Source: an uncultured Thiotrichales bacterium (GTDB lineage: Bacteria > Pseudomonadota > Gammaproteobacteria > GCA-2400775). Taken from it: 64,000 nt of DNA. Below are positions 4,496-30,476 of the stretch, piece by piece. The stretch's first letter is position 1; each line of letters starts with the position of its first letter. A program made the translations under genes and the position numbers. Below the pieces are notes generated by a model that saw only the letters and a list, made by a program, of their open reading frames with translations, had not been told where the DNA came from and searched no databases. Location of the stretch: assembly GCA_964617475.1 (NCBI GenBank), contig CAZTYM010000001.1:100085-164084 (forward strand), given 5' to 3'.

Positions 4496-5533
4496 GTGGC
4501 AACAAGTGTCTCTGTGCTCGCACCCGGATTATTAGGGCATCCATCATTTGCAGAAGCTATGGCTAATATCAGTTTGCCAGGTATTGAGCAACTGTTTGAT
4601 GCAATAATCGATACTATCCCAGCCAGCGACCGCTACGATCAGCAATTACTTTCCTTGCTAGGCGCAAATGTATCGCCAGATCGCATTGCTTCTCTTGCAA
4701 AAATGCTAGCATCTGAAACAGGCGGTAAAGCGCAAAAAGCTTCCTATCTGATCGCCTCGTTTGTTCATTTACAGGCAGATTCAGGTCGACTTATCATGTT
4801 CGGCGATGACCAATTAGAGGTAGATGAGAGTGAAACACAACAGTGGCTTGGGGAGTTAGAGCCGCTGTTTGAAGAACATCACATTAAGGCCGAGGCGATA
4901 TCTCCTGAGCATTGGCTAATAACAAGTGATAAACCCTTAGATTCAACTTTCTCACCTTTGTCACAGGTAGTGGGTAAGGACATACATGATTTTATGCCTA
5001 AAGGCGCTAATGCAATGTACTGGCGCAGCTTAATGAACGAAATTCAAATGCAGCTCCATCTGAGTTCTGAGAACAATGGAAGACAAGTACAAAGACGTAA
5101 AGTAGTTAATAGCATGTGGTTATGGGGTAGTGGTGAGCAGGTCAATACTAATAATTGCATTTGGCAAGGTATTACCACCGATGATGTGTTGGCGCGTCTG
5201 CTAGCTCAACGAATAGGTATTGGAACAATACGTTCCTTAAAACAAGGTGACGATTTGTTAAATCGGAATAACGCGTATCAAATCATCGTCGATACAAGCA
5301 TGGCCGGGCCTACGGCAAGACAGGATGTAGATTCATGGTATCAATATTTAGAGTTGTTTCAAGCAACCGTCGCTGCACCAATAATTCAAGCATTAAAGTC
5401 AAAAGAAATAAAAGAAGTACAGCTCTATCCAATAAATGGCCGAGCATTCCGTTTAAGGGTGGGTGGTTTTAATCCGTTGCGAAATTTTTTTGGTAAAAGA
5501 AAACATTTTGTCGATTATATGGCCGAAGTTTGA
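4496..5533 (+). CDS. Conserved hypothetical protein, translationally coupled to recJ
   Basis: 345-aa ORF whose stop overlaps the recJ start (ATGA overlap at 5530-5533). No confident family assignment from sequence. Confidence 0.5.
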   Translation: MATSVSVLAPGLLGHPSFAEAMANISLPGIEQLFDAIIDTIPASDRYDQQLLSLLGANVSPDRIASLAKMLASETGGKAQKASYLIASFVHLQADSGRLIMFGDDQLEVDESETQQWLGELEPLFEEHHIKAEAISPEHWLITSDKPLDSTFSPLSQVVGKDIHDFMPKGANAMYWRSLMNEIQMQLHLSSENNGRQVQRRKVVNSMWLWGSGEQVNTNNCIWQGITTDDVLARLLAQRIGIGTIRSLKQGDDLLNRNNAYQIIVDTSMAGPTARQDVDSWYQYLELFQATVAAPIIQALKSKEIKEVQLYPINGRAFRLRVGGFNPLRNFFGKRKHFVDYMAEV

Positions 5534-7284
5534 TGAGCGATTTTATCGACAGCAAACAAATTAAAAGACGGCATATTAATGCCGAGCTCGCGCTGCCTGA
5601 TTCAATGCACCCCGTTTTGGCTAAAGTGCTCGCTGCCAGAGATGTGCAATCAGTAAATGAACTAGACTATTCCCTAAACCAGTTGCAGCCTTATGAGAAA
5701 TTGTTCGGCATTAGCGAAGCATGTCAGTTATTACATAAGCATTTAAAGCTCGGTTCGCACATATTGATTGTCGCTGACTTTGATGCTGATGGTGCAACCA
5801 GTTGTGCTTTAGCTATGCGAGGCCTAAAAGCTATGGGTGCAAAGCAGGTTTCCTATGTTGTGCCCAATAGATTTGAATACGGCTATGGCCTAACGCCAGC
5901 GATTGTTGAGGTAGCAGCAAGTCATACACCCGATCTAATTGTTACCGTGGATAATGGTATATCCAGTAACAATGGCGTGGCCGCTGCACGCGAAAAGGGC
6001 ATTGATGTATTAATCACAGATCATCATCTACCGGGTAAGCAGTTGCCAGAAGCAAATGCCATCGTTAACCCAAACCAGCATGAAGATAAATTTCCAAGTA
6101 AAGTGCTAGCTGGTGTTGGCGTGATGTTCTATGTGCTGATGGCTTTGCGTGCTGAGCTTAAAACCAGCAATTGGTTTGGGGAAAAAAATATTCCTATACC
6201 TAACCTCGCTCAATGGTTAGATCTCGTCGCCTTAGGAACTATTGCCGATGTTGTGCCGCTTGATCATAATAATCGTATCTTAGTTGAACAGGGTCTGCGT
6301 CGTATTCGTCAGGGCAAATGTTGTGAAGGTATCAGCGCATTGCTCGCCGTATCTGGTCGTAATGCCACTTATCTCGCAAGCGCTGACTTGGGCTTTGCTT
6401 TAGGGCCAAGACTCAATGCAGCTGGGCGGCTTGATGATATGCAACAGGGTATCGAATGTTTATTGTGTGACGATACCGCCACCGCATTGCAAATAGCGCA
6501 ATCGCTTGATGAGTTAAACCAGGAGCGCCGCGATATTCAAGCGCAAATGAAAAAAGAAGCGATTGCCGAATTACGTAATATACGTGTCGAAGAGCAAGAC
6601 CAATATGGCCTATGTATTTTTCGCCGTGATTGGCATCAGGGTATAGTCGGTCTCGTAGCGGCTCATGTAAGAGAACAAAAACACAGGCCAGTTATTGCTT
6701 TTGCTGTCAGCGGTGAGGGTGAGCTCAAGGGTTCGGCACGTTCAATTCCTGGTTTACATATCCGCGATGCCTTAGACAGCGTTGCCACGCGTTATCCGCA
6801 CCTTATTTCTAAATTTGGTGGTCACGCCATGGCCGCAGGTTTAAGTCTACAGGAAGACCACTACGCAGAATTCTCACAACGCTTTAATGAAGTAGTTTGC
6901 GAAATGCTTAGTGAAGAAGATTTAAAAGAAGTAATTCATAGCGACGGCGAGCTATTAGAAGAATATCTCGATCTCGAAGCTGCTTTTGCGCTGCGCGGAG
7001 CAGGGCCTTGGGGCCAGCATTTCCCGGAACCGTTGTTTGATGGCAGTTTTGAGATTGTTGATAAACGCATCGTTGGCGAGAGCCACTTAAAGCTAAAACT
7101 GCGTGCCAAGCAGGGCCGTATTGTCGATGCCATTGCCTTTAATATCACCGACGAAGACTGGCCAGAAGATGTGGTAAGCGTGCGCGTCGCTTACCGTTTA
7201 GACATTAATGAATATCGCGGCGAGTGCTCACCACAGTTGATTATTGAGCATGTAGAGCCGCTTTCCACCACAGCGGTTAGCTGA
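5530..7284 (+). CDS. recJ: Single-stranded-DNA-specific exonuclease RecJ
   Basis: DHH motifs (ADFDADGATS, DHH) and DHHA1 region at RecJ length (584 aa). Lies upstream of prfB-lysS as in E. coli. Confidence 0.9.
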   Translation: MMSDFIDSKQIKRRHINAELALPDSMHPVLAKVLAARDVQSVNELDYSLNQLQPYEKLFGISEACQLLHKHLKLGSHILIVADFDADGATSCALAMRGLKAMGAKQVSYVVPNRFEYGYGLTPAIVEVAASHTPDLIVTVDNGISSNNGVAAAREKGIDVLITDHHLPGKQLPEANAIVNPNQHEDKFPSKVLAGVGVMFYVLMALRAELKTSNWFGEKNIPIPNLAQWLDLVALGTIADVVPLDHNNRILVEQGLRRIRQGKCCEGISALLAVSGRNATYLASADLGFALGPRLNAAGRLDDMQQGIECLLCDDTATALQIAQSLDELNQERRDIQAQMKKEAIAELRNIRVEEQDQYGLCIFRRDWHQGIVGLVAAHVREQKHRPVIAFAVSGEGELKGSARSIPGLHIRDALDSVATRYPHLISKFGGHAMAAGLSLQEDHYAEFSQRFNEVVCEMLSEEDLKEVIHSDGELLEEYLDLEAAFALRGAGPWGQHFPEPLFDGSFEIVDKRIVGESHLKLKLRAKQGRIVDAIAFNITDEDWPEDVVSVRVAYRLDINEYRGECSPQLIIEHVEPLSTTAVS

Positions 7285-19039: not shown

Positions 19040-19522
19040 ATGAAATTGAACATAATTGCTTTTGTAGCATTGTCATCTTTGCTTGTCCTAATTGGTGCTA
19101 GCGCGGTAGTTGCTGAAGAAAAGAAGAAGACAAAAAAAGAAATTCGGTTTGAAAAAATTGCCCGTCCGGCTGATTTTACCAAACTCTATGACGAATCACC
19201 GGTGGAAGAATTAGTGGCTTATGGCAAGCAGTTGTATGACGACCGTACCTTGGCACCCAATGGACTTACTTGTAATGACTGCCATAATAAGTCACGAGCT
19301 TATAAGAAGGGTTTTGCAAAACCCTTTCCTCATCCTTCAAGAATGGCGAAAGCGCGTGCAGGCATTAAGCGAGATATCTACGCTGATGAAGGTGTGCAAA
19401 TGTGCATGGTAATTCCTATGAGCGCTGATCCTCTGCCCTGGGATTCCAAAGAATTAGCTGCGATGACCGCCCATGTTTTGGAAGTGGATCAGCCGTTTTA
19501 CCGTGAAAAAAAAGGTTTATAG
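19040..19522 (+). CDS. c-type cytochrome (monohaem), periplasmic
   Basis: Signal peptide, single CNDCH haem-binding motif, 160 aa. Confidence 0.7.
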   Translation: MKLNIIAFVALSSLLVLIGASAVVAEEKKKTKKEIRFEKIARPADFTKLYDESPVEELVAYGKQLYDDRTLAPNGLTCNDCHNKSRAYKKGFAKPFPHPSRMAKARAGIKRDIYADEGVQMCMVIPMSADPLPWDSKELAAMTAHVLEVDQPFYREKKGL

Positions 19523-19560
19523 CCAAAGTATAGATACTGTCTAAAAGCCAGAAGGATTTA

Positions 19561-20091
19561 ATGATGAAAACAAAGTATTCAATTGTATTGTTGTGTGTTT
19601 CAAGCTTATTGCTGTTAAGTACCGCTGTTTTTGCAGGCAAGGTGAGCGTTGATGTTGATGAGAATGATGTCGCGATTGGTGGTTATGACACTGTTGCTTA
19701 TTTTACTGAAGGTTTAGCTAACGAGGGCAGTGCTAATTATACTGTGGTATATAACGGTGCTATCTATCGTTTTGAATCTGCCAAGAATCGTGATTTATTT
19801 CGTGCTGAGCCTGCTAAGTACGTGCCGCAATACGGTGGTCATTGTGCTTATGGAGTCACTAAAAATAGAAAGTTTGTTGCCGACCCAAGAGCCTGGGATG
19901 TGGTAGATGGTAAGCTTTATCTCAATACCAATAGAAAGATACGCGATAAATGGCGTAAAGATATTGCTGGCAATGTAGAAGAAGCTAACGGAATTTGGAC
20001 TGATATCGCAGCCGCTAAAGACGCTGATCTAGAAGAAGACTTCCCAGTCTTTCGTAAGAGCGGCGACGAAAAAATGGATGATTTTTGGTAG
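19561..20091 (+). CDS. YHS-domain protein (putative metal-binding), secreted
   Basis: Signal peptide and GGYDTVAYF, the YHS-domain signature (cf. GYDPVSYF). Confidence 0.7.
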   Translation: MMKTKYSIVLLCVSSLLLLSTAVFAGKVSVDVDENDVAIGGYDTVAYFTEGLANEGSANYTVVYNGAIYRFESAKNRDLFRAEPAKYVPQYGGHCAYGVTKNRKFVADPRAWDVVDGKLYLNTNRKIRDKWRKDIAGNVEEANGIWTDIAAAKDADLEEDFPVFRKSGDEKMDDFW

Positions 20092-20334
20092 GCCACTGGT
20101 TTAACTTTTATACCGGTGGCGGTGTTTAAGACTTAGATTGTCACCGATTCTTTTCTTGTTTGTTATATTGTAACGAAGAAATATCAAAGACACTTTGTTT
20201 TTGTGGCTTTTTAAAATATTATAATTTCACACCGGGTTCAAAATTCTTACTTTGTTGGTTTCCGACCAACGGTGCTACTAGTCTTTTTAGTCAGGCCGAT
20301 ACATGACTGAGTTGAATGAGTGAGGAGAAATATT

Positions 20335-20676
20335 ATGAGTTGTTCTAATAGTCATTCCCATCCAGAACATATCCATGGTCCGGGTTGCGGACACACAGCG
20401 ATTCGTCATGGTGACCACGTTGATTACTTGCATGATGGTCATCTTCATCATCCGCACGAGGATCATTACGACGAGCACGTGATTGAAGTGAGCGATACTA
20501 ATCCAAATGAATGTAATAAAGTGCATGATTGCGGCGGGCACATACACGGGCCTAACTGCGGCCATGAGGCTGTACCTCATGGTGATCATATCGACTATAT
20601 CGTCGATGGTCGCTTACACCACGTTCACGACGGACATTGTGATGATCATGGTCCGGTAGAAATTGTTACAGCATAG
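20335..20676 (+). CDS. Histidine-rich tandem-repeat protein (putative metal-binding)
   Basis: Two about 45-aa repeats: HIHGPGCGHTAIRHGDHVDYLHDGHLHHPHEDHYDEH and HIHGPNCGHEAVPHGDHIDYIVDGRLHHVHDGHCDDH. GGAG SD 8 nt before the ATG at 20335. Confidence 0.65.
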   Translation: MSCSNSHSHPEHIHGPGCGHTAIRHGDHVDYLHDGHLHHPHEDHYDEHVIEVSDTNPNECNKVHDCGGHIHGPNCGHEAVPHGDHIDYIVDGRLHHVHDGHCDDHGPVEIVTA

Positions 20677-20868
20677 AATATTCATCTAATTCGATAACAG
20701 CCTAAGCTATTAATCTGCTTAGGCTGTTAGCTGATCTTTTCATATTATCTCGAGTTGTCTGATTCGATGCTTAGCTAATCGCATCTTATTTGTATTCAAA
20801 AAAACACCAATAAATACAACGTCTTGTGTATTATATTTCATTTAGATATTGCTTATTATTGGTGACGC

Positions 20869-21675
20869 TTGTTAGACGACTATTTGCCAAAAAGAATTGT
20901 ATGCCTCACCGAGGAAACCACGGAATTTCTTTATTTACTGGGTGAGCAAAAGCGCATTGTAGGTATCTCTGGTTTTACGGTTAGGCCACCGAGAGCGCGC
21001 AAAGAAAAACCCAGGGTATCGGCTTTCACTTCAGCTAAAATTGATAAAATTCTAGAGCTTAAACCCGATTTAGTATTAGGTTTCTCGGACTTGCAAGCTG
21101 ATATCGCAGCAGAGTTGGTGCGAAAGGGCGTGGCAGTACATATTTTTAATCAAAGGTCTGTAGACGAGATTCTTTCCATGATGACCTTGCTCGGCGGGTT
21201 GGTAGGTGCTCAGGCTAAGGCGCAGGAATGGATAGATGCTTTTAAACAAAAGGCTCGCATTTTGAAAGCGGAGTCTGAGGGTTTAACTAGGCCAGTTGTA
21301 TACTTCGAGGAGTGGGATGATCCTTTGATTAATGGAATTCAGTGGGTGTCAGAGTTGATTAATATTGCCGGTGGACATGATTGTTTTCCTGAACTCTCGA
21401 AGGAGGTGCTTGGAAAAAATAGAATCATTAGCGATGGCAAACGGGTCATTGCTAAAAACCCGGATATTATTATCGGTTCTTGGTGTGGCAAGAAATTCCG
21501 TCCTGAGAAAGTCGCAGCGCGAGATGGTTGGACTGAGATTAATGCGGTTAAAAACCAACATATTTATGAGATTAAATCGTGCGATATATTGCAGCCCGGT
21601 CCCGCTGCTCTAACTGATGGTTTGGATCAAATAAAGTCTTGCATAAATAATTGGCGTCAGTCCCATGCCGAGTGA
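20869..21675 (+). CDS. BtuF-like (class III) periplasmic-binding-protein-fold protein, no signal peptide
   Basis: Cobalamin/siderophore-binding-protein-like pattern (RIVGISGFT..., KPDLVLGF, WDDPLINGIQWVSELINIAGG, NPDIIIGSWCG). TTG start as given by the ORF track; no N-terminal signal sequence. Confidence 0.6.
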   Translation: MLDDYLPKRIVCLTEETTEFLYLLGEQKRIVGISGFTVRPPRARKEKPRVSAFTSAKIDKILELKPDLVLGFSDLQADIAAELVRKGVAVHIFNQRSVDEILSMMTLLGGLVGAQAKAQEWIDAFKQKARILKAESEGLTRPVVYFEEWDDPLINGIQWVSELINIAGGHDCFPELSKEVLGKNRIISDGKRVIAKNPDIIIGSWCGKKFRPEKVAARDGWTEINAVKNQHIYEIKSCDILQPGPAALTDGLDQIKSCINNWRQSHAE

Positions 21676-22033
21676 AAACCAACAATGTTCGCAATGTCCT
21701 ACTGTGTTTGCTTGTAGTGCAAAAGACAGTGGGAAGGCATGTTGGTGCCAGTCATTTCCGGCCGTTTTGCCGTTCGTAGTAGGGCAAGCATGCTTATGCC
21801 CGCTTTGCTTAAAGCAAGCAGTGGCTGCCAAATTACCTAGTTATCTCAGTTCGCTTGATCATAAAGAGGCTTTTGAGCTAGCACAAAATTATCCATCAAA
21901 CGCACCATTGCTAGAGGGGATTGATTACGTCATGGACGGTGAGCTAATGGTGTTTCAAGCCTGGTTTCACTTAAAGCGTGGTTATTGCTGCGGTAATGAT
22001 TGCCTTAATTGTCCTTATCCTAAAAGCGAATGA
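21665..22033 (+). CDS. Cysteine-rich CWC-family protein with C-terminal DUF5522-like region
   Basis: CSQCPTVFACS...CWCQSF...CLCPLC and C-terminal YCCGNDCLNCPY. Overlaps the upstream gene by 11 nt. Confidence 0.55.
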   Translation: MPSENQQCSQCPTVFACSAKDSGKACWCQSFPAVLPFVVGQACLCPLCLKQAVAAKLPSYLSSLDHKEAFELAQNYPSNAPLLEGIDYVMDGELMVFQAWFHLKRGYCCGNDCLNCPYPKSE

Positions 22034-22707
22034 ATAAGCAGCGTGTATTAGTGTCTTGGAGCAGTGGTAAAGACGCTGCCTGGGCGCTATATCAAGCGAA
22101 GCAATCATCTCATTTAGAGGTGGTAGGTGTGTTTACTACGGTAAATAATGCCTTTCAGCGCGTTGCTATGCATGGTGTTAGGCGAGAAGTGCTAGAACGG
22201 CAAGCAGAATGTCTCGGTTTGCCTTTATTTACGATTGATATTCCTTATCCATGTAGCAACGAAGACTATGAAAATGCCATGTCTCAGTTTATTGATGAGA
22301 TCAAGTCAGATGGAATCGATGGTTTAGTGTTTGGTGATTTATTCCTCGAGGATATTCGTGACTATAGAGAAAAGCAGCTAGCCGATTCAGGCTTATCTAT
22401 ACATTTTCCCTTATGGGAGATACCTACGGATGAGTTAGCGAAAGAGATGGTGAGTTCTGGATTACAGGCCGTTATTGCATGCGTCGATCCAAAGCAGTGC
22501 TCATCTGATTTAGCGGGGCGAATATATGATGCAGACCTTTTATCGGAATTACCAAAAAGTATGGACCCCTGTGGGGAGAATGGTGAATTTCACACCTGTG
22601 TGGTAGCAGGGCCCATGTTTAAACAAGCGCTGCAAGTTCGTGTTGGTGAGATAGTTGAACGTGAAGGCTTTGTTTATGCTGATGTATTATTATTAGGTGA
22701 CGGCTAG
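22030..22707 (+). CDS. PP-loop ATP pyrophosphatase, Dph6-like (MJ0570/DUF71 family)
   Basis: SWSSGKDAAWAL PP-loop (SGGKDS-type) plus the central motif set of the Diphthami_syn_2 family. 4-nt overlap with the upstream gene. Confidence 0.7.
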   Translation: MNKQRVLVSWSSGKDAAWALYQAKQSSHLEVVGVFTTVNNAFQRVAMHGVRREVLERQAECLGLPLFTIDIPYPCSNEDYENAMSQFIDEIKSDGIDGLVFGDLFLEDIRDYREKQLADSGLSIHFPLWEIPTDELAKEMVSSGLQAVIACVDPKQCSSDLAGRIYDADLLSELPKSMDPCGENGEFHTCVVAGPMFKQALQVRVGEIVEREGFVYADVLLLGDG

Positions 22708-22710
22708 TCC

Positions 22711-23475
22711 ATGGCGACCATTTGGCAAAAGCGTACTAAATACAAACACTACGAAGTTCGTAAAGCCGGGAATAGTACCCGTTTGTATACTAATGGTGTA
22801 TTCCATAGTCAGTACAACCCCAACCACCTTGTTAGTCGAGGCGTTTGGGATTTATTATTTTTACCCGTATTTTTTCTCCCAGCTGAAAAGTTAAAGCGCG
22901 TACTCGTTCTAGGAGTAGGGGGTGGTGCTGCAATTCAGTTATTAAATCGCTATGTTAAACCTGAACAGATTATTGGTGTTGAATTAGATGCAATACATTT
23001 ATCCATCGCTAAGCGATTTTTTAAAGTTGCGGGAAAAAATATTAAGCTTGTTCAAACTGATGCGATTAAGTGGCTAGCAAGTTATCGAGGGCCGCAGTTT
23101 GACCTGATTATCGATGATTTATTTTTTGAACAAGAAGGAATGGGGCAACGAGCAATAGATTTAGATTCATCCTGGTTTTCGTTAATAGAAAAACGACTTA
23201 ACGATCATGGCTTGCTTATAGCTAATACCTTTTCACATGCTGAACTATCTCGCTCAGCATTTTGTTGTGATTTAAATGTTGCTCAGCGATTTAGCGATGC
23301 CTATGCTTTTCAGCTGGAAAGATTTGATAATGTAGTAGGTGCTTTCTTAAAAGAAACGGCGACAGTCGGCCAGCTTCGAAAACGGCTTGGGCAAACAGAA
23401 GGTTTGAATAAAAAGAGTGGGGCAGATGCCCTGAAATTTAGAGTTAAACGGTTAAAGGGCGCTGTTGCCCCTTAA
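22711..23475 (+). CDS. Spermidine-synthase-like (PABS-fold) SAM-dependent transferase
   Basis: VLVLGVGGGAAIQ Rossmann motif and ELDAIHLSIAKRFF, typical of the spermidine/spermine synthase family. Starts 3 nt after the upstream stop. Confidence 0.6.
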   Translation: MATIWQKRTKYKHYEVRKAGNSTRLYTNGVFHSQYNPNHLVSRGVWDLLFLPVFFLPAEKLKRVLVLGVGGGAAIQLLNRYVKPEQIIGVELDAIHLSIAKRFFKVAGKNIKLVQTDAIKWLASYRGPQFDLIIDDLFFEQEGMGQRAIDLDSSWFSLIEKRLNDHGLLIANTFSHAELSRSAFCCDLNVAQRFSDAYAFQLERFDNVVGAFLKETATVGQLRKRLGQTEGLNKKSGADALKFRVKRLKGAVAP

Positions 23476-23494: not shown

Positions 23495-25141
23495 TTAAAG
23501 TGCGAAGCGTTTGGTTAAATCATTAAGGTTTTCGTTAATTTGATTTAACTCAGAGCACAGCTGTTTGGCTTCACGAGCACCTTCTGCAACCGCAGTTGAT
23601 ACGTTATCAATAGCTTTAATACTATCAGTCAATTCTTGCGTAACTTCTGTTTGTTGCTCGGTAGAAGATGCAATCTGATTAGTTGTTTCAGAAATACTGG
23701 TTACTGAGCGAGCAATTTCGGCGATGGATTTGCCTGCCATTTTCGCTTCTTCAACACTCTTCGCCATACCGGTTTGACTACGTTCCATTGAATCCACTGC
23801 TTGTTCTGAACGTGTTTGCAGACTAGTAATGGTTTTATTAATCTCATCAATAGAGTTTTGAGTGCGTTGCGCTAAAGTGCGAACCTCATCCGCAACCACG
23901 GCAAAACCACGACCTTGCTCACCTGCACGAGCCGCCTCAATAGCAGCATTCAGTGCCAGCAAGTTAGTTTGTTCAGCAATAGATCGTATGACTTCGGTTA
24001 CGCTGCTAATGCTTGCGCTATCTTCACGTAAGGCATTGATAACTTGTCCTGCTTCTTCCATGGCTTGGCTAACATCTTCAATTTGTTGCACAGCTTTACG
24101 AACAACTTGATCACCTTTTTGTGCCTCAAGCGATGCGTCACCAGCAACTTGTGCGGTAGAACTGGTATTACCAGCCACTTCCTGGAAGCTTGATGCCATT
24201 TCGTTCATAGATTCAGAAACTCTGTTGACATCAGCCTGCTGGCTAGCCATTCTTTCTGCTGAAGAACTAGACTGCTCGCTGAGACGTTGAGAAGCAGTAT
24301 CCAGCGTTTTAACACTTTGGCTAATTTCACGTATCAGAGTGCTAACACCTTCTTGCATGTCATGGAAATATCTTGCTGATGATCCTAATTCGTCTTTATC
24401 GAATTTGGACATATCAATATTTTGGCTCAAGTCACCATTACCCATTCTTTGCATTTGGGCGTTGAGTACTGCAAGCGGCGTATTAATTTTACGTAGCAAC
24501 ATAAAACCACCGAAAATGGTCAGTCCAATCAATACTACGCAAATACCCAGCAAAGATGTTGTAATGCCTGCAAATGAAGCTTTAGCTTCTGATCTCAACT
24601 GAACAGACTTGTTTTGTAAGTCAGCTTGGAATTTTTCTACTGGCGCAATCATAGCGTTAAATGGCGCAAGCATTGGGCCAAGAATAGTTTCACGTGCTTT
24701 TTCGATACGATCAGTATCGATAAGATGAATATAATGTTCTTGTGTTTTCACATAGTCAGCAAAGTTTTTGCGGAAGGTTGTGATAAATGCCTTGTCAGGT
24801 GCACTTTCTACTGCTTGGTCGAATTCACCTAATACTTTTAATGTTAATTCGCGGTTTTCTTCAATGATAGGATGAATGACTTTATGTTCTTCTTTGTTTT
24901 CGGTTAAGCCATAGTCCAGTGCAAAACGGCGATAAGTTAATGTGTAATGACGAAGTTCAGATACTTTCGTTAATAAATCCACATTCTTCTCAACGATATG
25001 GTCCACATCACTCTCGACCTGTGTCAAGCTGACATAGACATAAACGCTCAACGCGATAACCAGTGCGGCAACCGTTGAAAAACTTAAAACGATAAAATTT
25101 TTAATTGATAAATTCTTTAACATTATGCGCTCCAAAAGCAC
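23495..25141 (-). CDS. Methyl-accepting chemotaxis protein
   Basis: N-terminal TM, ligand-binding region, second TM, HAMP, and a highly conserved MCP signalling domain ([28 protein letters not shown]). Confidence 0.85.
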
Positions 25142-25373: not shown

Positions 25374-26132
25374 TCAAAATTGATAGACAAAAAGCTGTGT
25401 TTTACGTAGATCACAGACATCTATAATCGATTTTGGTTGATGTTCAGGGAGAGAAAAAGTGTTAGAAATAAACAAGGTATCAGGTTTGGTTTTTTCTTGT
25501 ACTAGCTTGGCGATTTCTGGCATCGGGGCAGGAGAGAGAAAACAGTATATTACGTCATACTCTTGCCATGGAGTTGACCAGAACGACTGATATTTTATTT
25601 CTAGGTTGGTTTTTCCTAAGCAACGTAGTTTTGCTAAAGCAAATGATAATGGCGCGGTTTCATAGCCGACGAATTTGGCTTGCGGAAATTGCTTCGCTAG
25701 TTTCACCAGTACACTAGCAACACCACAGCCAAAATCGGCAAAAACGAAGGGCTTATTGACATCGAGTTGTTCTGCTAAACAGGTAATGGTTTTATGGCCG
25801 CTGAGATAGAGCGGTACCTGCTCTCCAAAAGCATTCCAGTTAAGCAACCATACGAGCGCAAAACACACGAGATACCATGCTGGATGGATGGTTTGCAGGA
25901 GTGCAGAATAGAGTAATGGAAAAAAAGCCAAGTTAATTGGTATCCACCACGCTCTCAAGCCTAAAATGATGCCGAGAACTGCAGCAATGATACCTTGCGC
26001 AAAAATCAGTGAAAGTAATGAAGGAGGATTGCTATCGTCGGCAATAATAAGACGATAAGTGATTACTAGCATGCAACTCATTATGTGAATAAAGAGCGCG
26101 CGCAGGCTGGGACGTAGCGTTGATAACATCAT
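25374..26132 (-). CDS. Membrane-anchored class I SAM-dependent methyltransferase
   Basis: N-terminal TM helices followed by the motif I DFGCGVA and a methyltransferase-fold remainder. Confidence 0.55.
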   Translation of the reverse strand: MMLSTLRPSLRALFIHIMSCMLVITYRLIIADDSNPPSLLSLIFAQGIIAAVLGIILGLRAWWIPINLAFFPLLYSALLQTIHPAWYLVCFALVWLLNWNAFGEQVPLYLSGHKTITCLAEQLDVNKPFVFADFGCGVASVLVKLAKQFPQAKFVGYETAPLSFALAKLRCLGKTNLEIKYQSFWSTPWQEYDVIYCFLSPAPMPEIAKLVQEKTKPDTLFISNTFSLPEHQPKSIIDVCDLRKTQLFVYQF

Positions 26133-26188
26133 TCAATGTCAAAGGTTATGAGCAGTATTAAGACGCTGAATGTGTTGATGTGCTTGAT

Positions 26189-27181
26189 CTACTGCTGCTC
26201 TGTAAGAGTATCAGGAATGTTATAGGGTAACTCTAAAAACTGTATCGTGGTATCAATGCCATCATCGAGGTATAGGTCTGAATCTCCGATGTGTTTAATT
26301 AGCATTACCGCTAGGGCTTGGTACTGGTTATCTCCGGTTGGAAGGGCGGTGACAATTTTACCGACGCTCTCGTTGTTTGTGCTTCCGATGCTATAAATAC
26401 CATCACCGGAAAGAGGTGTTTCTTCACATTGTATAGCGATGCGTATCATGCGTCTTTTTAGTTTACCAAGATGGTGCATGCGAGCCACGACTTCCTGGCC
26501 AGGATAGCAACCTTTACTGAAACTGAGGCCGTTGACTAAGTCAAGATTCATCATCTGAGGGACAAAACAACCCTGGGTTTTTTCTACCAATGTTGGTAAG
26601 CCATATTGAATATCAAGTAAACGCCAAACACTATTATCGCAATGAGTCAATTCAAACTGGTTTGCATTGTCAGACTGGCTGATATACAAGTAGCGTTTTC
26701 CATCAGCGAGCGGCGTAAGAAAATCATCGCCAATGCATACTACTTGCTGAGTCGACATATTTATATCTGGAAACAAAGCGGAAATAGACTGTTTATCGCA
26801 AACTAAACCATTGCATGTTTGCCTAGTTGCGGCAAATTCCACATCAGCCATCAAGACATACATTTTCAACCGCTTAAGCACATTTTCTTGAATGCTGCTG
26901 GCAATTATCATTTGATAATGGTCGGCAAAACGTATCAGGTAAAACAAGGCTAAAAGCCGTCCTTTAGGGTCACAGTAGCCGTTTAAATGGAACTCTTGTT
27001 CTGTAAGGCTTTCTACATCATTAGTAAATTGACCGTGAAGAAATTGGCTAGCGTCCTTACCACTTATTTTAATTACAGATAAATGATCAAGTTGACAGAT
27101 AAGATTTTTATCATCGAGATTAGAAAGACTTGTAGCCAGATCCTGTGATTCAGGTTCTGATACTTGTTGCGCTTTACTCAT
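26189..27181 (-). CDS. ygfZ: tRNA-modifying / Fe-S repair folate-binding protein YgfZ
   Basis: The YgfZ signature KGCYPGQE is present at about 330 aa, and the aminomethyltransferase-like fold is evident. Confidence 0.8.
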   Translation of the reverse strand: MSKAQQVSEPESQDLATSLSNLDDKNLICQLDHLSVIKISGKDASQFLHGQFTNDVESLTEQEFHLNGYCDPKGRLLALFYLIRFADHYQMIIASSIQENVLKRLKMYVLMADVEFAATRQTCNGLVCDKQSISALFPDINMSTQQVVCIGDDFLTPLADGKRYLYISQSDNANQFELTHCDNSVWRLLDIQYGLPTLVEKTQGCFVPQMMNLDLVNGLSFSKGCYPGQEVVARMHHLGKLKRRMIRIAIQCEETPLSGDGIYSIGSTNNESVGKIVTALPTGDNQYQALAVMLIKHIGDSDLYLDDGIDTTIQFLELPYNIPDTLTEQQ

Positions 27182-27297: not shown

Positions 27298-27669
27298 ATG
27301 GAAAAAATGCACCCTGTATTTCTTAAGTTGAATCAAATTCACTTCCCGCCGATGGCGTTGGTGTCAATTTTGCACAGGATAACAGGCGTTATTCTGGTTA
27401 TTGCTATGCCAGTTTTGGTTTATTTGCTGACTGTATCTCTGCAAAATGAAGCTGGTTACCAGCGCGCTATCGAACTTAGTAATCAGCTTCTATTTAAAGC
27501 GTTGCTCATTCTTTTTTTTTGGTCGCTTGGTCATCATGTCGTTGCAGGTATCCGTTTTCTGATCATTGATCTACTTGGACGCCCTGTCAGTGGTCGCGAG
27601 TCTGCCTACGTTGCGCTAGTGTTAAGCCTTTTGGTGTTTTTGTTTTCAGTAGGTGTGGTGATACTGTGA
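27298..27669 (+). CDS. sdhC: Succinate dehydrogenase cytochrome b556 subunit
   Basis: ILHRITGVILV haem-ligand region, 123 aa, three TM helices. First gene of the sdhCDAB operon. Confidence 0.85.
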   Translation: MEKMHPVFLKLNQIHFPPMALVSILHRITGVILVIAMPVLVYLLTVSLQNEAGYQRAIELSNQLLFKALLILFFWSLGHHVVAGIRFLIIDLLGRPVSGRESAYVALVLSLLVFLFSVGVVIL

Positions 27670-28007
27670 TTCTTTCGCCTAACAGTACGCATGGATGGTT
27701 GCTGCAAAGGCTAACAGCCGTATTTATTGCGATTTGCTTACCTGTCTTTTTTATTTACTTCTTGTTTTATTCACCCAACTCATATGATGACTGGTACGCA
27801 ACGATGACTTCCGTGCACGTTATTATTTTGACAGTGGTTTTTTTTACTGCTTTATCCTTGCATGCATGGATAGGGCTTCGTGATGTTGTCATTGACTATA
27901 TTCATCATCTTGGTTATCGCATCGCCATACTAAGCATCGTTGTTATTTTGATATTTGGCCAGCTACTTTGGTTGGCGATTGTATTATTAAGGCCTATCAA
28001 TGAATGA
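27666..28007 (+). CDS. sdhD: Succinate dehydrogenase membrane anchor subunit
   Basis: 113-aa three-TM protein overlapping sdhC and sdhA. Confidence 0.85.
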   Translation: MILSPNSTHGWLLQRLTAVFIAICLPVFFIYFLFYSPNSYDDWYATMTSVHVIILTVVFFTALSLHAWIGLRDVVIDYIHHLGYRIAILSIVVILIFGQLLWLAIVLLRPINE

Positions 28008-29778
28008 TAGCGTAGCGAATATTCCCCGACGTAGTTTTGATACTCTGGTGATTGGTGCCGGTGGCGGAGGTTTGCGAGCAGCCTATCAGCTCGCTCAGGC
28101 TGATCTTAATGTGGCTGTAGTATCAAAAGTTTTTCCCACACGCTCACATACCGTTGCTGCGCAAGGCGGGGTTAATGCCGCGCTTGCCAATGTATCGCCT
28201 GATAATTGGCATTGGCATATGTATGACACGATTAAAGGTAGTGATTACTTAGGTGATCAAGACGCCATAGAGTATATGTGTCGAGCCGCTTCTCGTATGG
28301 TTGTTGAGTTGGAGCACATGGGTGTCCCATTCTCGCGTCTTGATAACGGCAAGATCTATCAACGGGCATTTGGCGGGCAAAGCCAGGAATTTGGCGGCGA
28401 TCAAGCATCGAGAACCTGTGCTGCTGCGGATCGTACGGGACATGCAATACTTCACTCGCTCTATCAACAAAATTTAAAATCGAAAACGCATTTTTTTGAT
28501 GAGTATTTCTCAATCGATTTGATCTACGATCCGGATCACACCGTGCTCGGTGCTTTGGTGCTGGAAATCGAGACGGGTGAGCTACTCATTATTGAAGCTA
28601 AGACAACACTAATTGCCACTGGCGGTGCGGGCCAAATCTTTCGTACCAATACCAATGCGCGTATTAATACCGGTGATGGTATGGCCATGGCGTTGCGCTC
28701 AGGTGTACCGCTACAAGATATGGAATTTTTTCAATTTCATCCCACCGGAATTGCTCGTAAAGGCATGCTTATTTCGGAAGGTGTTAGAGGCGAAGGTGGC
28801 TATTTAGTCAATAAGGATGGTGAACGGTTCATGGAGCGCTATGCGCCACACGCAAAAGACTTAGCCAGTCGAGATGTAGTGAGTCGAGCAATTGCGACAG
28901 AAGTGCGTGAAGGACGGGGTTGTGGTGAAGATAAAGATTATGTCTTGCTGAAGTTGGATCATCTCGGTGCAGATGTAATTAAAAAACGCTTACCTAATAT
29001 TCGTGAAACAGCAATCACTTTTATGGGTGTAGATCCTATTGAGCAAGCCATTCCGGTGTTTCCAACAGCGCATTACACCATGGGAGGGATTCCCACCAAT
29101 CGCTTTGGCCAAGTGATGCGCTCAACAGTTGGCGGTGAGGAAGAAGCGGTGCTCGGGCTTTATGCCGCAGGAGAATGCGCCTGTGTATCGGTTCATGGTG
29201 CTAACCGGCTGGGTGGTAACTCATTGCTCGATATTATTGTGTTTGGTCGTGCGGCTGCGAATCATATTATCAGTTATCTTGCCGAAAATCGTTATCATCG
29301 TGCTTTCGATGAAAGCTCGCTTGATGCTTCGTTAGCGCGACTAAATCGTTGGAATAAGCGAGGAGAAGGGGAGACCGTGTCAGCACTGCGAGAGGAATTA
29401 CAAGCGACGATGGAAGAGTATTGCGGTGTATTTCGAACGCATGAGGTGCTAGAAAAAGGCGTTGGAAAAGTTAAAGCCCTAAAACAACGATTAGACAATG
29501 TTTATTTACAAGATCATAGTAAAGTATTTAACACTGCACGTATCGAAGCATTGGAACTGGAGAACTTGATCGATATCGGCTTAGCAACGGTGGAGTCCGC
29601 CTTAGCGAGATGTGAAAGTAGAGGTGCACATTCTCGTATCGATTACCCAAAACGTAATGATACCAATTGGCTTAAACACTCTTTATACCATCTAGAAGAA
29701 GGTGTGGTTGATTATAAACCAGTCAAAATGAAGCCTTTAACCGTATCTACTTTTCCTCCAAAAGAACGGGTTTACTGA
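28000..29778 (+). CDS. sdhA: Succinate dehydrogenase flavoprotein subunit
   Basis: FAD-binding VIGAGGGGLRAA, SKVFPTRSHTVAAQGG (covalent FAD His) and RLGGNSLLD motifs. Confidence 0.95.
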   Translation: MNDSVANIPRRSFDTLVIGAGGGGLRAAYQLAQADLNVAVVSKVFPTRSHTVAAQGGVNAALANVSPDNWHWHMYDTIKGSDYLGDQDAIEYMCRAASRMVVELEHMGVPFSRLDNGKIYQRAFGGQSQEFGGDQASRTCAAADRTGHAILHSLYQQNLKSKTHFFDEYFSIDLIYDPDHTVLGALVLEIETGELLIIEAKTTLIATGGAGQIFRTNTNARINTGDGMAMALRSGVPLQDMEFFQFHPTGIARKGMLISEGVRGEGGYLVNKDGERFMERYAPHAKDLASRDVVSRAIATEVREGRGCGEDKDYVLLKLDHLGADVIKKRLPNIRETAITFMGVDPIEQAIPVFPTAHYTMGGIPTNRFGQVMRSTVGGEEEAVLGLYAAGECACVSVHGANRLGGNSLLDIIVFGRAAANHIISYLAENRYHRAFDESSLDASLARLNRWNKRGEGETVSALREELQATMEEYCGVFRTHEVLEKGVGKVKALKQRLDNVYLQDHSKVFNTARIEALELENLIDIGLATVESALARCESRGAHSRIDYPKRNDTNWLKHSLYHLEEGVVDYKPVKMKPLTVSTFPPKERVY

Positions 29779-29780
29779 CT

Positions 29781-30476
29781 ATGGAATTTCGCGTTTATCG
29801 ATATAACCCAGAAGTTGATTCTGAACCCTATATGCAGTCATTCGAAGTTACAGCAATTAACGATGACACGATGCTATTGGATGTGCTGAAACAGATTAAA
29901 TCTGAGGATGAAACACTGACTTTTCGTCATTCATGTGGTGAAGGGGTATGTGGGTCCGATGCGATTAACGTTAATGGCCGAAACCTGCTTGGATGTATTA
30001 CCCCTGTTAGTGAATTAAAACAGCCTGTTGAAATTCGCCCTGTTCCTGGAATGCCCGTTATTCGGGACTTAGTTGTCGATATGAGTCAGTTTTATCACCA
30101 CTATCGCTCGATTGATCCTTATTTAATTGTCCACGATCCAATACCAGAAGAAGAGTTCTTGCAAAGCCCACAGCAAAGAGATGAACTAGACGGTTTGTAT
30201 GAGTGTATTCTTTGCGGATGCTGTACTACTGCTTGTCCTTCTTTTTGGTGGAATCCGGAACGTTACCGGGGACCAGCTGCATTATTGCAAGCTTATCGTT
30301 TTGTCGCCGATAGTCGCGATCAAGCGACTACCAAGCGCTTAGAAGGCCTTGAAGGTCCATATCGTTTGTTCCGTTGTCACACGATTATGAATTGCGTTGA
30401 TGCTTGTCCGAAAGGACTTAATCCGGCGCATGCCATTGTGGAATTAAAAAAGAAAATGATTAAGGAGTCGATTTAA
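29781..30476 (+). CDS. sdhB: Succinate dehydrogenase iron-sulfur subunit
   Basis: CGSDAINVNG, CILCGCCTTACPS and CHTIMNCVDACPKG cysteine clusters. Confidence 0.95.
   Translation: MEFRVYRYNPEVDSEPYMQSFEVTAINDDTMLLDVLKQIKSEDETLTFRHSCGEGVCGSDAINVNGRNLLGCITPVSELKQPVEIRPVPGMPVIRDLVVDMSQFYHHYRSIDPYLIVHDPIPEEEFLQSPQQRDELDGLYECILCGCCTTACPSFWWNPERYRGPAALLQAYRFVADSRDQATTKRLEGLEGPYRLFRCHTIMNCVDACPKGLNPAHAIVELKKKMIKESI

Follow-up and report, generated by a model that had tools for sequence, protein, structure and literature searches.

The closest described systems to the locus analysed here are the PP-loop enzymes of the Dph6/DUF71 family and the proteins of corrinoid (B12) uptake and salvage. Dph6, the diphthine–ammonia ligase of archaea and eukaryotes, adenylates a carboxylate and then amidates it. 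The DUF71-B12 subgroup is distinguished by the signature ENGEF/YH, replacing EGGE/DxE188 of Dph6, and clusters with genes for B12 transport and salvage (BtuFCD, cbiB); it co-occurs in genomes with CbiB and is anti-correlated with bacterial CbiZ (de Crecy-Lagard et al. 2012, PMC3541065). The same paper favoured a hydrolase-like role in which DUF71-B12 replaces CbiZ, a proposal doubted by a reviewer (PMC3541065). DUF71-B12 has figured in the literature as a 'missing function' of vitamin B12 salvage since 2012; no later biochemical follow-up was found in the searchable literature. Among the other salvage enzymes, CbiZ, CbiB, and CobQ/CobB make or break the side-chain amides of corrinoids. On the uptake side, BtuF is the periplasmic binding protein of the BtuCD-F importer and has a class III two-lobe fold. 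A 'cysteine-rich CWC protein' is encoded between CbiA and SirC in the norcobamide cluster of Sulfurospirillum, and is co-induced with the cluster (PMC7755780).

The locus (positions 20869–23475 of the 64-kb window, i.e., the whole stretch of DNA analysed) consists of four tightly packed open reading frames on the + strand, as read from the list of open reading frames and the sequence of the junctions. Gene 1 (20869..21675, TTG start, 268 aa) encodes a cytoplasmic BtuF-like (class III, Peripla_BP_2) binding protein (BP); gene 2 (21665..22033, ATG start, 122 aa), a Cys-rich CWC and DUF5522 protein; gene 3 (22030..22707, ATG start, 225 aa), a PP-loop ATP pyrophosphatase assigned to the DUF71-B12 subgroup (COG2102); and gene 4 (22711..23475, ATG start, 254 aa), a spermidine-synthase-like (PABS-fold) SAM-dependent transferase. 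The junction sizes given in the original prediction were all reproduced from the sequence: an 11-nt overlap of genes 1 and 2, with the ATG of gene 2 inside '...cATGccgagTGA', a 4-nt ATGA overlap of genes 2 and 3 ('gaATGAat'), and a 3-nt gap between genes 3 and 4 ('TAG tcc ATG'). Short gene overlaps are frequent in operons and are weak proof by themselves. The real support for a unit comes from relatives whose proteins are 47–81% identical to those of the window, in which order and tight spacing persist amid different flanks. All four genes are retained in three of them (L085, L086, and L088) and the first three only in three others (L087, L089, and L101); the junctions of the BP-DUF5522-DUF71 cassette remain tight or overlapping across the differing flanks. 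The four genes are thus one co-transcribed unit, as had been predicted, with gene 2 translationally coupled to the binding protein gene and gene 4 a lineage-specific, dispensable fourth member. The notion of a four-gene set recurring in other genomes is borne out in part: the order is kept in relatives, but the full set is confined to close ones.

On the 5′ side, a stem-loop with a 13-bp stem (20695..20729, + strand; dG, −22.3 kcal/mol; z, −6.1 against 200 shuffles) is located 3′ of the upstream His-rich gene, between that gene and the operon. It has a weak T-run behind it and was missed by the consensus scan because its loop is 9 nt. This terminator-like hairpin marks where the transcription unit is bounded on its 5′ side. 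The operon had been placed directly downstream of a metal-related cluster; His-rich and YHS genes do stand just upstream, but they are outside the unit, since the strong hairpin lies between and the cluster is absent from L086–L089. No sigma-70 promoter was flagged in the 140 nt upstream of the operon, Fur, Zur or NikR-like boxes upstream of it scored no better than shuffles, and no conserved 5′ leader block was found among the window, L085, L086, L087, and L088. Neither a cobalamin riboswitch nor any Rfam family reached the gathering score in the whole 64-kb window, and in the segment before the operon (20000–20950) neither was found even at E ≤ 5. A BLAST search based on a restricted panel of reference proteins showed no btuB, btuCD or cob genes, and no FecCD or ABC genes, in the window.

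Gene 3 has the COG2102/PF01902 fold (Pfam E = 2.3e-31), with PDB matches to 3rjz (E = 5e-13) and 2d13 (E = 3e-11), and the sequence of its PP-loop, SWSSGKDA, does not vary within the family. The fold and the ATP-binding residues are common to Dph6. In marked contrast, the segment CGENGEFHT, which aligns to GEGGEFET of PF0828/3rjz, contains ENGEFH in place of the Dph6 motif EGGEFE, so that a His occupies the position of the catalytic Glu188. The ENGEFH motif is invariant in the alignment of the gene 3 family, and ExGE[F/Y/M]H is found in 95 of 96 DUF71 homologs of the loci examined. Against the Dph6 model TIGR03679, gene 3 scores 72.3 bits (cut-off, 197.3). A true Dph6 is ruled out by the motif and cut-off tests; on its signature, gene 3 belongs to the DUF71-B12 subgroup. 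The original label of a Dph6-like PP-loop ATPase is correct as to family.

Of 80 species genomes, 8 (loci L016, L036, L045, L046, L055, L058, L060, and L083) have the ortholog of gene 3 (52–56% identity) downstream of a same-strand, Rfam-confirmed cobalamin riboswitch; they are distributed over Acidobacteriota, Gamma- and Alphaproteobacteria, and Actinomycetota. Six randomly chosen other loci showed no riboswitch. Recognised btu genes are present in six of the eight loci, of btuB type in L016, L036, L046, L058, and L060, and of btuFCD transporter type in L036, L046, L055, and L060; L045 and L083 are the other two. Seventy of the 80 DUF71 orthologs are solitary, with no recognisable B12 neighbour, and all-against-all clustering revealed no conserved neighbours of the 80 beyond lineage-level synteny. 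DUF71 contexts in the plasmid collection (Meiothermus, Allomeiothermus, and Acinetobacter) were uninformative for B12. The window operon has in common with the published DUF71-B12 loci the PP-loop fold, the ENGEF/YH motif, and an adjoining BtuF-family gene, and its gene 3 orthologs, like the subgroup, sit in riboswitch/btuB/btuFCD operons. It differs from them in that the BtuF-family gene, the sole B12-type neighbour of gene 3 in the window, encodes a cytoplasmic protein without BtuCD, in the absence of a riboswitch, in the addition of a DUF5522/CWC protein and a PABS-fold transferase, and in belonging to a mostly solitary subfamily.

The gene 1 protein has the class III substrate-binding fold (PF01497, E = 9e-48 in the Pfam profile search). 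An in-frame TGA at 20863–20865 stands 3 nt upstream of the start, and the consensus of the BP family begins with MxDYYPxRIVCL at residue 1, directly at the domain; the protein therefore has no signal peptide, in agreement with the original prediction of a signal-peptide-less BtuF-like protein. Its homologs are 65–78% identical and about 266 aa long, and NCBI labels the orthologs 'cobalamin-binding protein'. The AF2 model (pLDDT, 91) gave Vibrio cholerae BtuF as the top PDB match in Foldseek (5ysc; E = 1.8e-15; TM, 0.72–0.76). In comparison with BtuF, the two-lobe fold is common, whereas the identity is only about 20%, the score against the BtuF equivalog NF002894 is 44 bits (cut-off, 234), and gene 1 has neither an export signal nor an adjoining permease or ATPase; it has instead two invariant cysteines (Cys12 and Cys206) and a Cys-rich neighbour. 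Corrinoid binding by the gene 1 protein is suggested, by analogy, by the gene context of two orthologs. One (L091, 68% identity) lies in the order riboswitch–BtuB–X–BP–BluB (247 bits)–CobQ (493 bits), with CobB nearby, placing BP and CobQ in one operon; the other (L055, 57% identity) follows riboswitch–btuD–btuC–btuF–DUF71.

The main domain of the gene 2 protein is DUF5522 (PF17653, E = 1.6e-14; 54.1 bits against a Pfam threshold of 25). The match to Cys_rich_CWC (PF14375), under which the protein had first been named, is weak (E = 0.033; 15 bits against a threshold of 24), although six of seven orthologs match that profile (best E = 4.3e-6). The many cysteines noted at the outset are confirmed by nine that are invariant in the ortholog alignment (C8, C11, C28, C45, C48, C108, C109, C113, and C116). 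The word-based homolog search gave just four matches because the protein evolves fast, and was replaced by a pattern-based metagenome scan for DUF5522 relatives. The AlphaFold model (pLDDT, 47; four sequences in the alignment) was unusable, and a PDB sequence search gave no meaningful match. The DUF5522 gene is directly 3′ of the BP ortholog in 10 of 14 contexts, the tightest pair of the cassette. In the DUF5522-anchored scan, a B12 marker was present in 16 of the 42 loci of at least 5 kb; the arrangements include riboswitch-btuB-DUF5522(-btuFDC) (L142, L156, and L165) and DUF5522-(DUF71)-BluB::CobT-riboswitch-btuB (L098, L099, L102, L108, and L113).

Profile searches gave significant matches not only for genes 1 and 3 but also for gene 4 (PF01564, E = 2.6e-10), as the original prediction had anticipated. 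Gene 4 shares with spermidine synthase (SpeE) the PABS-type Rossmann fold and the conserved acidic residues that bind ribose and adenine. In spermidine synthase, the Asp of GGGDG selects decarboxylated SAM (dcSAM). This Asp is replaced in gene 4, where LGVGGGAA aligns to IGGGDG, the second catalytic, substrate-binding Asp (DSSDP-type, D-x-x-D) is not aligned, and the score against the speE-type NCBIfam model NF002010 is 44.8 bits (cut-off, 260). These motif and cut-off tests rule out a true spermidine synthase and agree with the original reading of a PABS-fold transferase. Its family is a small one, with 201 representatives (E ≤ 1e-30) out of 1.84 billion. Homologs stand beside the cassette only in L085, L086, and L088, the window's own lineage, and are missing from L087, L089, L101, and all wider contexts; none was found in the plasmid collection. 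It is not apparent what a class I SAM transferase would contribute to B12 salvage.

Although none of the four genes had been thought to have a role assignable from sequence, a B12 role is assigned to the core of the operon, because gene 3 has the DUF71-B12 signature and clusters for uptake or biosynthesis under the control of cobalamin riboswitches repeatedly contain each of genes 1, 2, and 3. The B12 link of the three core families is well supported. Judged from sequence, the cluster is probably a cytoplasmic module for corrinoid salvage or processing around the DUF71-B12 enzyme, whose chemistry we infer from its relatives. In this module, corrinoids imported by transporters encoded elsewhere would be captured in the cytoplasm by the BtuF-like protein, which may pair with the DUF5522/CWC protein, a probable Zn or Fe-S partner, and the pair would hand the corrinoid to the DUF71-B12 enzyme. 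With ATP, this enzyme would adenylate a carboxylate side chain of the corrinoid and convert it to an amide, a chemistry it probably shares with Dph6, and thereby re-amidate, or complete, corrinoids whose amidation is incomplete or that have been hydrolysed; a CbiZ-like remodelling step is less likely. The proposed step is, by analogy, of the kind catalysed by CbiZ, CbiB, and CobQ/CobB, whereas the fold of gene 3 is unrelated to theirs and its corrinoid activity is putative. The PABS-fold enzyme would be a lineage-specific SAM-dependent add-on, the acceptor of which we leave unspecified.

A bolder form of the proposal is that BP, DUF5522/CWC, and DUF71-B12 constitute a previously unrecognised cytoplasmic corrinoid chaperone–enzyme system for a missing step of B12 salvage, such as the repair, by ATP-dependent re-amidation, of corrinoids that are deamidated or incomplete, with DUF5522/CWC as a new factor for handling corrinoids that contains metal or Fe-S and, in this lineage, the PABS-fold enzyme adding a SAM-dependent modification to give a modified cobamide or lower ligand; we offer this only tentatively, and as a whole it is rather unlikely. 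What is new here is two candidate B12-linked partners of DUF71-B12, the highly conserved cytoplasmic BtuF-like protein and the DUF5522/CWC protein, neither of which we found described as B12-linked. The operon and its relatives suggest a dedicated handling of salvaged corrinoids by a cytoplasmic binding protein and enzyme. Microbial communities of the sea and the gut are shaped by the exchange and remodelling of B12; to that field a new salvage or repair step, if true, would be of interest. The question is directly tractable, since the three proteins are small and soluble, the class of ligand is defined, and one carrier, Moritella marina, can be cultured.

The ligand of the binding protein bears directly on the first alternative, a cytoplasmic handling of heme, siderophores or metals, in which the ligand of BP would be an iron or metal chelate and that of the Cys-rich protein a metal, with a functional tie to the upstream His-rich/YHS cluster. 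The ligands of Peripla_BP_2 members include heme, siderophores, and metals. By sequence, the closest PDB match of gene 1, 4m7o, is annotated 'iron-binding protein', and heme and siderophore binders were as close as BtuF in the fold search, which did not separate ligand classes; the His-rich and YHS genes are also near at hand. This cluster is, however, cut off by the hairpin and absent from L086–L089, and the Fur/Zur box scores lend nothing to an iron or zinc regulon. Moreover, the neighbours of the orthologs are BluB/CobQ/BtuB and cobalamin riboswitches rather than iron genes, and the partner enzyme has the B12-subgroup signature, all of which makes metal handling improbable.

Still within B12 metabolism, the operon might serve the activation of corrinoids, with the Cys-rich protein reducing protein-bound Co(II), the SAM enzyme methylating Co(I) as in MetH reactivation, and the PP-loop enzyme as an accessory. 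The nine invariant cysteines of gene 2 are compatible with an Fe-S cluster, the SAM-binding fold has lost the dcSAM-specific Asp, and Cys12 and Cys206 of BP are invariant. The SAM enzyme is nonetheless absent from most cassettes, and there is no linked flavodoxin or ferredoxin partner. The established reaction of PP-loop enzymes is the adenylation of carboxyl or carbonyl groups; they are not known to drive electron transfer. We give corrinoid activation little credence.

The diphthamide analogy of the original prediction would have gene 4 transfer an alkyl group from SAM and gene 3 then perform ATP-dependent amidation on a protein or small-molecule target other than a corrinoid. Gene 3 and Dph6 are homologs (PF01902; 3rjz/2d13), and in four lineages there is a translational link between gene 3 and the transferase gene. 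Yet Glu188 is replaced by His, the TIGR03679 score falls short (72 bits against 197), and L087, L089, L101, and every wider context lack the transferase, while orthologs of genes 1–3 are embedded in B12 operons. Bacteria have no diphthamide (PMC3541065), and the EF-2 substrate and the Dph pathway do not exist in them. At most, the analogy may extend to the reaction, in which a carboxylate is amidated with ATP, but not to the target, and a diphthamide-like pathway is very unlikely.

Chance adjacency of four genes of unrelated functions, for which the mostly solitary DUF71 orthologs and the restriction of the full set to one lineage might speak, is scarcely credible in view of the overlapping start and stop codons, the order retained at 47–81% protein identity amid different flanks, the pairing of BP and DUF5522 in 10 of 14 contexts, and the independent tie of each core family to B12 loci.

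In public databases, the gene 3 subfamily is named only 'adenine nucleotide alpha hydrolase' by NCBI, and the source names of gene 4 relatives are only 'spermidine synthase' and 'oxidoreductase'. PGAP labels some distant bacterial DUF71 proteins 'diphthine--ammonia ligase', which is an annotation error.

The four open reading frames lie on the plus strand at 20869–21675 (gene 1; TTG start, 268 aa), 21665–22033 (gene 2; ATG start, 122 aa), 22030–22707 (gene 3; ATG start, 225 aa), and 22711–23475 (gene 4; ATG start, 254 aa). The junctions read from the sequence, namely an 11-nt overlap of genes 1 and 2, a 4-nt ATGA overlap of genes 2 and 3, and a 3-nt gap between genes 3 and 4, agree exactly with the original prediction, as do the coordinates. 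The predicted families were recovered in Pfam for gene 1 (Peripla_BP_2; E = 9e-48), gene 3 (Diphthami_syn_2; E = 2.3e-31), and gene 4 (Spermine_synth, with a PABS fold; E = 2.6e-10), whereas gene 2 matches DUF5522 significantly (PF17653; E = 1.6e-14) and the predicted CWC domain weakly (E = 0.033), although 6 of 7 orthologs match CWC. A 13-bp hairpin (20695–20729; −22.3 kcal/mol, z −6.1) follows the 3′ end of an upstream His-rich ORF, and the operon is therefore a unit apart from the upstream genes. This ORF (20320–20676, +; 118 aa) has no match in Pfam or NCBIfam, and consists of two tandem copies of HIHGPxCGHxAxxHGDHxDYxxDGxLHHxH; it is preceded at 19040–20091 (+) by a c-type cytochrome-like ORF (weak SoxA/TsdA match) and a member of the YHS domain-containing (seleno)protein family (NF041384, 148.7 bits). 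On the other side, a methyl-accepting chemotaxis protein gene (23495–25141, −) converges on gene 4 with 19 nt between the stop codons, followed at 25374–27181 (−) and 27298–30476 (+) by a membrane-anchored class I methyltransferase-like ORF, a YgfZ-type folate-binding protein (weak GCV_T match), and sdhCDAB.

Relatives of the operon, gathered by exact-protein look-ups in other genomes and metagenome contigs (loci designated L), retain its arrangement despite differing flanks. All four genes are kept, with overlaps or gaps of ≤11 nt, in L085, L086, and L088 (a Thiotrichales MAG), where gene 3 is 81%, 66%, and 59% identical to that of the window; genes 1–3 without gene 4 are present in L087 (64%), in L089 from Moritella marina (48%), and in L101 (45%), and L090, L092, and L173 have the gene 1–gene 2 pair only. 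The binding protein and DUF5522 are paired in 10 of 14 contexts. From these retention patterns, the conserved core is the binding protein–DUF5522 pair, usually with DUF71, and gene 4 is a lineage-specific addition; all four genes occur together in three loci, and gene 4 was found, among the loci compared, in the window's own lineage only. In a second sample, 80 species genomes selected by their gene 3 ortholog (51–59% identity), gene 3 is mostly solitary, adjoined by a gene 1 ortholog in two loci (L050 and L055) and by genes 2 or 4 in none. The chemoreceptor neighbor is kept in L085, L086, and L088, with a different one near the Moritella cassette, and the ygfZ–sdh synteny is retained in L087 and L088.

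In alignment with the Dph6-type structures 3rjz (PF0828) and 2d13, gene 3 shows GENGEFHT versus GEGGEFET of PF0828, and the ENGEFH motif is invariant in its family. Replacement of the catalytic Glu188 by ENGEF/YH, together with clustering with btuFCD or cbiB, defines the bacterial DUF71-B12 subgroup, proposed by De Crecy-Lagard et al. to act in B12 salvage, possibly replacing CbiZ (PMC3541065). Its function was still given as unknown in a 2016 table, and our literature search found no later work on it. Rfam detected an upstream same-strand cobalamin riboswitch at 8 of the 80 gene 3 loci, from four phyla (L016, L036, L045, L046, L055, L058, L060, and L083); no others emerged when every locus was scanned with an nhmmer profile, and Rfam was negative for six loci picked at random. 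Excluding L045 and L083, the gene orders are riboswitch–btuB–DUF71, riboswitch–btuB–DUF71–btuF…btuCD, and riboswitch–btuB–btuDC–btuF–DUF71. A bacterial genome carries on the order of ten cobalamin riboswitches, so that, by inference, well under one chance match would be expected in 80 upstream windows of ~5 kb.

The absence of a signal peptide from gene 1, as predicted, is borne out by an in-frame TGA 3 nt upstream of the TTG and by a family consensus that begins at residue 1 (MxDYYPxRIVCL). The family (~266 aa), whose members are named 'cobalamin-binding protein' at NCBI, is strongly conserved, with 65–78% identity in Gammaproteobacteria and beyond. L091 (68% identity) has the order riboswitch, TonB-dependent B12 receptor, 193-aa ORF (5423–6004; no Pfam or NCBIfam match), binding protein, BluB (247 bits; cut-off, 150), and cobyric acid synthase CobQ (493 bits; cut-off, 273), with CobB close by. 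In L055 (57% identity), the ortholog follows riboswitch…btuD–btuC–btuF–DUF71, and therefore coexists with a second, separate BtuF-family gene of the transporter operon. The AlphaFold model (pLDDT, 91) has Vibrio cholerae BtuF as its top PDB match; the model is just as close to heme and siderophore binders, and the ligand therefore cannot be read from the fold. Cys12 and Cys206 are invariant and Cys172 nearly so (alignment A5), and these residues could possibly serve in thiolate–cobalt ligation, or in forming a disulfide or sharing a metal with the Cys-rich protein. In L172 (2350–3606; 418 aa), a 67% identical ortholog is extended at its C terminus by a fused GNAT acetyltransferase domain; PhyH and NUDIX genes come next, and neither DUF5522 nor DUF71 is nearby.

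The fast-evolving gene 2 family has nine invariant cysteines in the alignment, including a C-terminal CCxxxCxxC-P-Y. A pattern-based metagenome scan yielded 80 DUF5522 loci, among them binding protein–DUF5522 (L092), binding protein–DUF5522–DUF71 (L101), DUF5522–DUF71 (L103, L115, and L147), riboswitch–btuB–DUF5522 (L142 and L156), and riboswitch–btuB–DUF5522–btuF–btuD–btuC (L165). Five Flavobacteria-like contigs (L098, L099, L102, L108, and L113) have DUF5522–(DUF71)–BluB::CobT fusion–riboswitch–btuB with divergent btuCD; the fusion (L098, 8059–9741; 561 aa) joins 5,6-dimethylbenzimidazole synthase and DMB phosphoribosyltransferase. All seven riboswitches tested were confirmed, and 16 of the 42 loci ≥5 kb long contain a B12 marker. 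No mention of DUF5522 was found in the searchable literature. As independent evidence, the norcobamide cluster of Sulfurospirillum encodes, between CbiA and SirC, a 'cysteine-rich CWC protein' that is co-induced with the cluster (PMC7755780).

In gene 4, LGVGGGAA aligns with IGGGDG of spermidine synthases, with loss of the Asp that selects decarboxylated SAM; the second substrate Asp is also missing, and speE-type models score 44.8 bits versus 260. Gene 4 probably encodes a SAM-dependent transferase of methyl or alkyl groups, and belongs to a small family (201 representatives at E ≤ 1e-30 among 1.84 billion).

Altogether, the operon is best explained as a cytoplasmic corrinoid salvage or processing module, and a B12-related role of its core is quite likely. 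Based on homology and context, the BtuF-like protein would capture a corrinoid in the cytoplasm, acting with the Cys-rich protein as an obligate partner, as suggested by translational coupling and their frequent pairing. The PP-loop enzyme might then adenylate a corrinoid carboxylate using ATP and amidate it, a tentative mechanism proposed because of the chemistry of Dph6 and other PP-loop families and the company of the CobQ/CobB amidotransferases; a SAM-dependent step would have been added in the window's lineage. The DUF71-B12 link and the adjacency to BtuF-family genes are already published (PMC3541065). What appears new is that the highly conserved, cytoplasmic BtuF-like neighbor is distinct from the transporter's binding protein, that DUF5522/CWC joins the B12-linked families as the third and is the tightest partner of this neighbor, and that a PABS-fold gene has been added to the cassette in this lineage. 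Counting against the B12 reading, the 64-kb window contains no cobalamin riboswitch detectable with Rfam and no recognizable btu or cob genes, and most DUF71 orthologs are solitary; the operon also has no conserved 5′ leader.

For the PP-loop enzyme, the CbiZ-like remodeling role put forward in 2012 is the alternative to amidation. The accessory proteins may instead form a redox and Co-methylation activation system, one in which the PP-loop enzyme would be hard to place. Handling of heme, siderophores, or metals, compatible with the fold of gene 1, lacks support: a search upstream of the operon found neither Fur nor Zur boxes, and the metal-related cluster (the cytochrome-like, YHS, and His-rich ORFs), although located immediately upstream as predicted, is set apart by the hairpin and unlinked to the operon in other genomes. 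The His-rich ORF is 88% conserved in L085 and not present upstream of the operon in L086–L089. The diphthamide-like pathway, a speculative reading in the original prediction, is unlikely: gene 3 lacks the catalytic Glu188 of Dph6 and scores 72 bits against the Dph6 equivalog model (cut-off, 197), and the transferase gene is dispensable. The label 'diphthine--ammonia ligase' on distant bacterial DUF71 homologs in RefSeq/GenBank (L175, 7001–7672; L176, 5971–6642), carried by Allomeiothermus silvanus, Acinetobacter baumannii, Priestia, and Peribacillus, is probably an over-annotation, because diphthamide is missing from bacteria (PMC3541065). The A. baumannii copy adjoins queE and queC.
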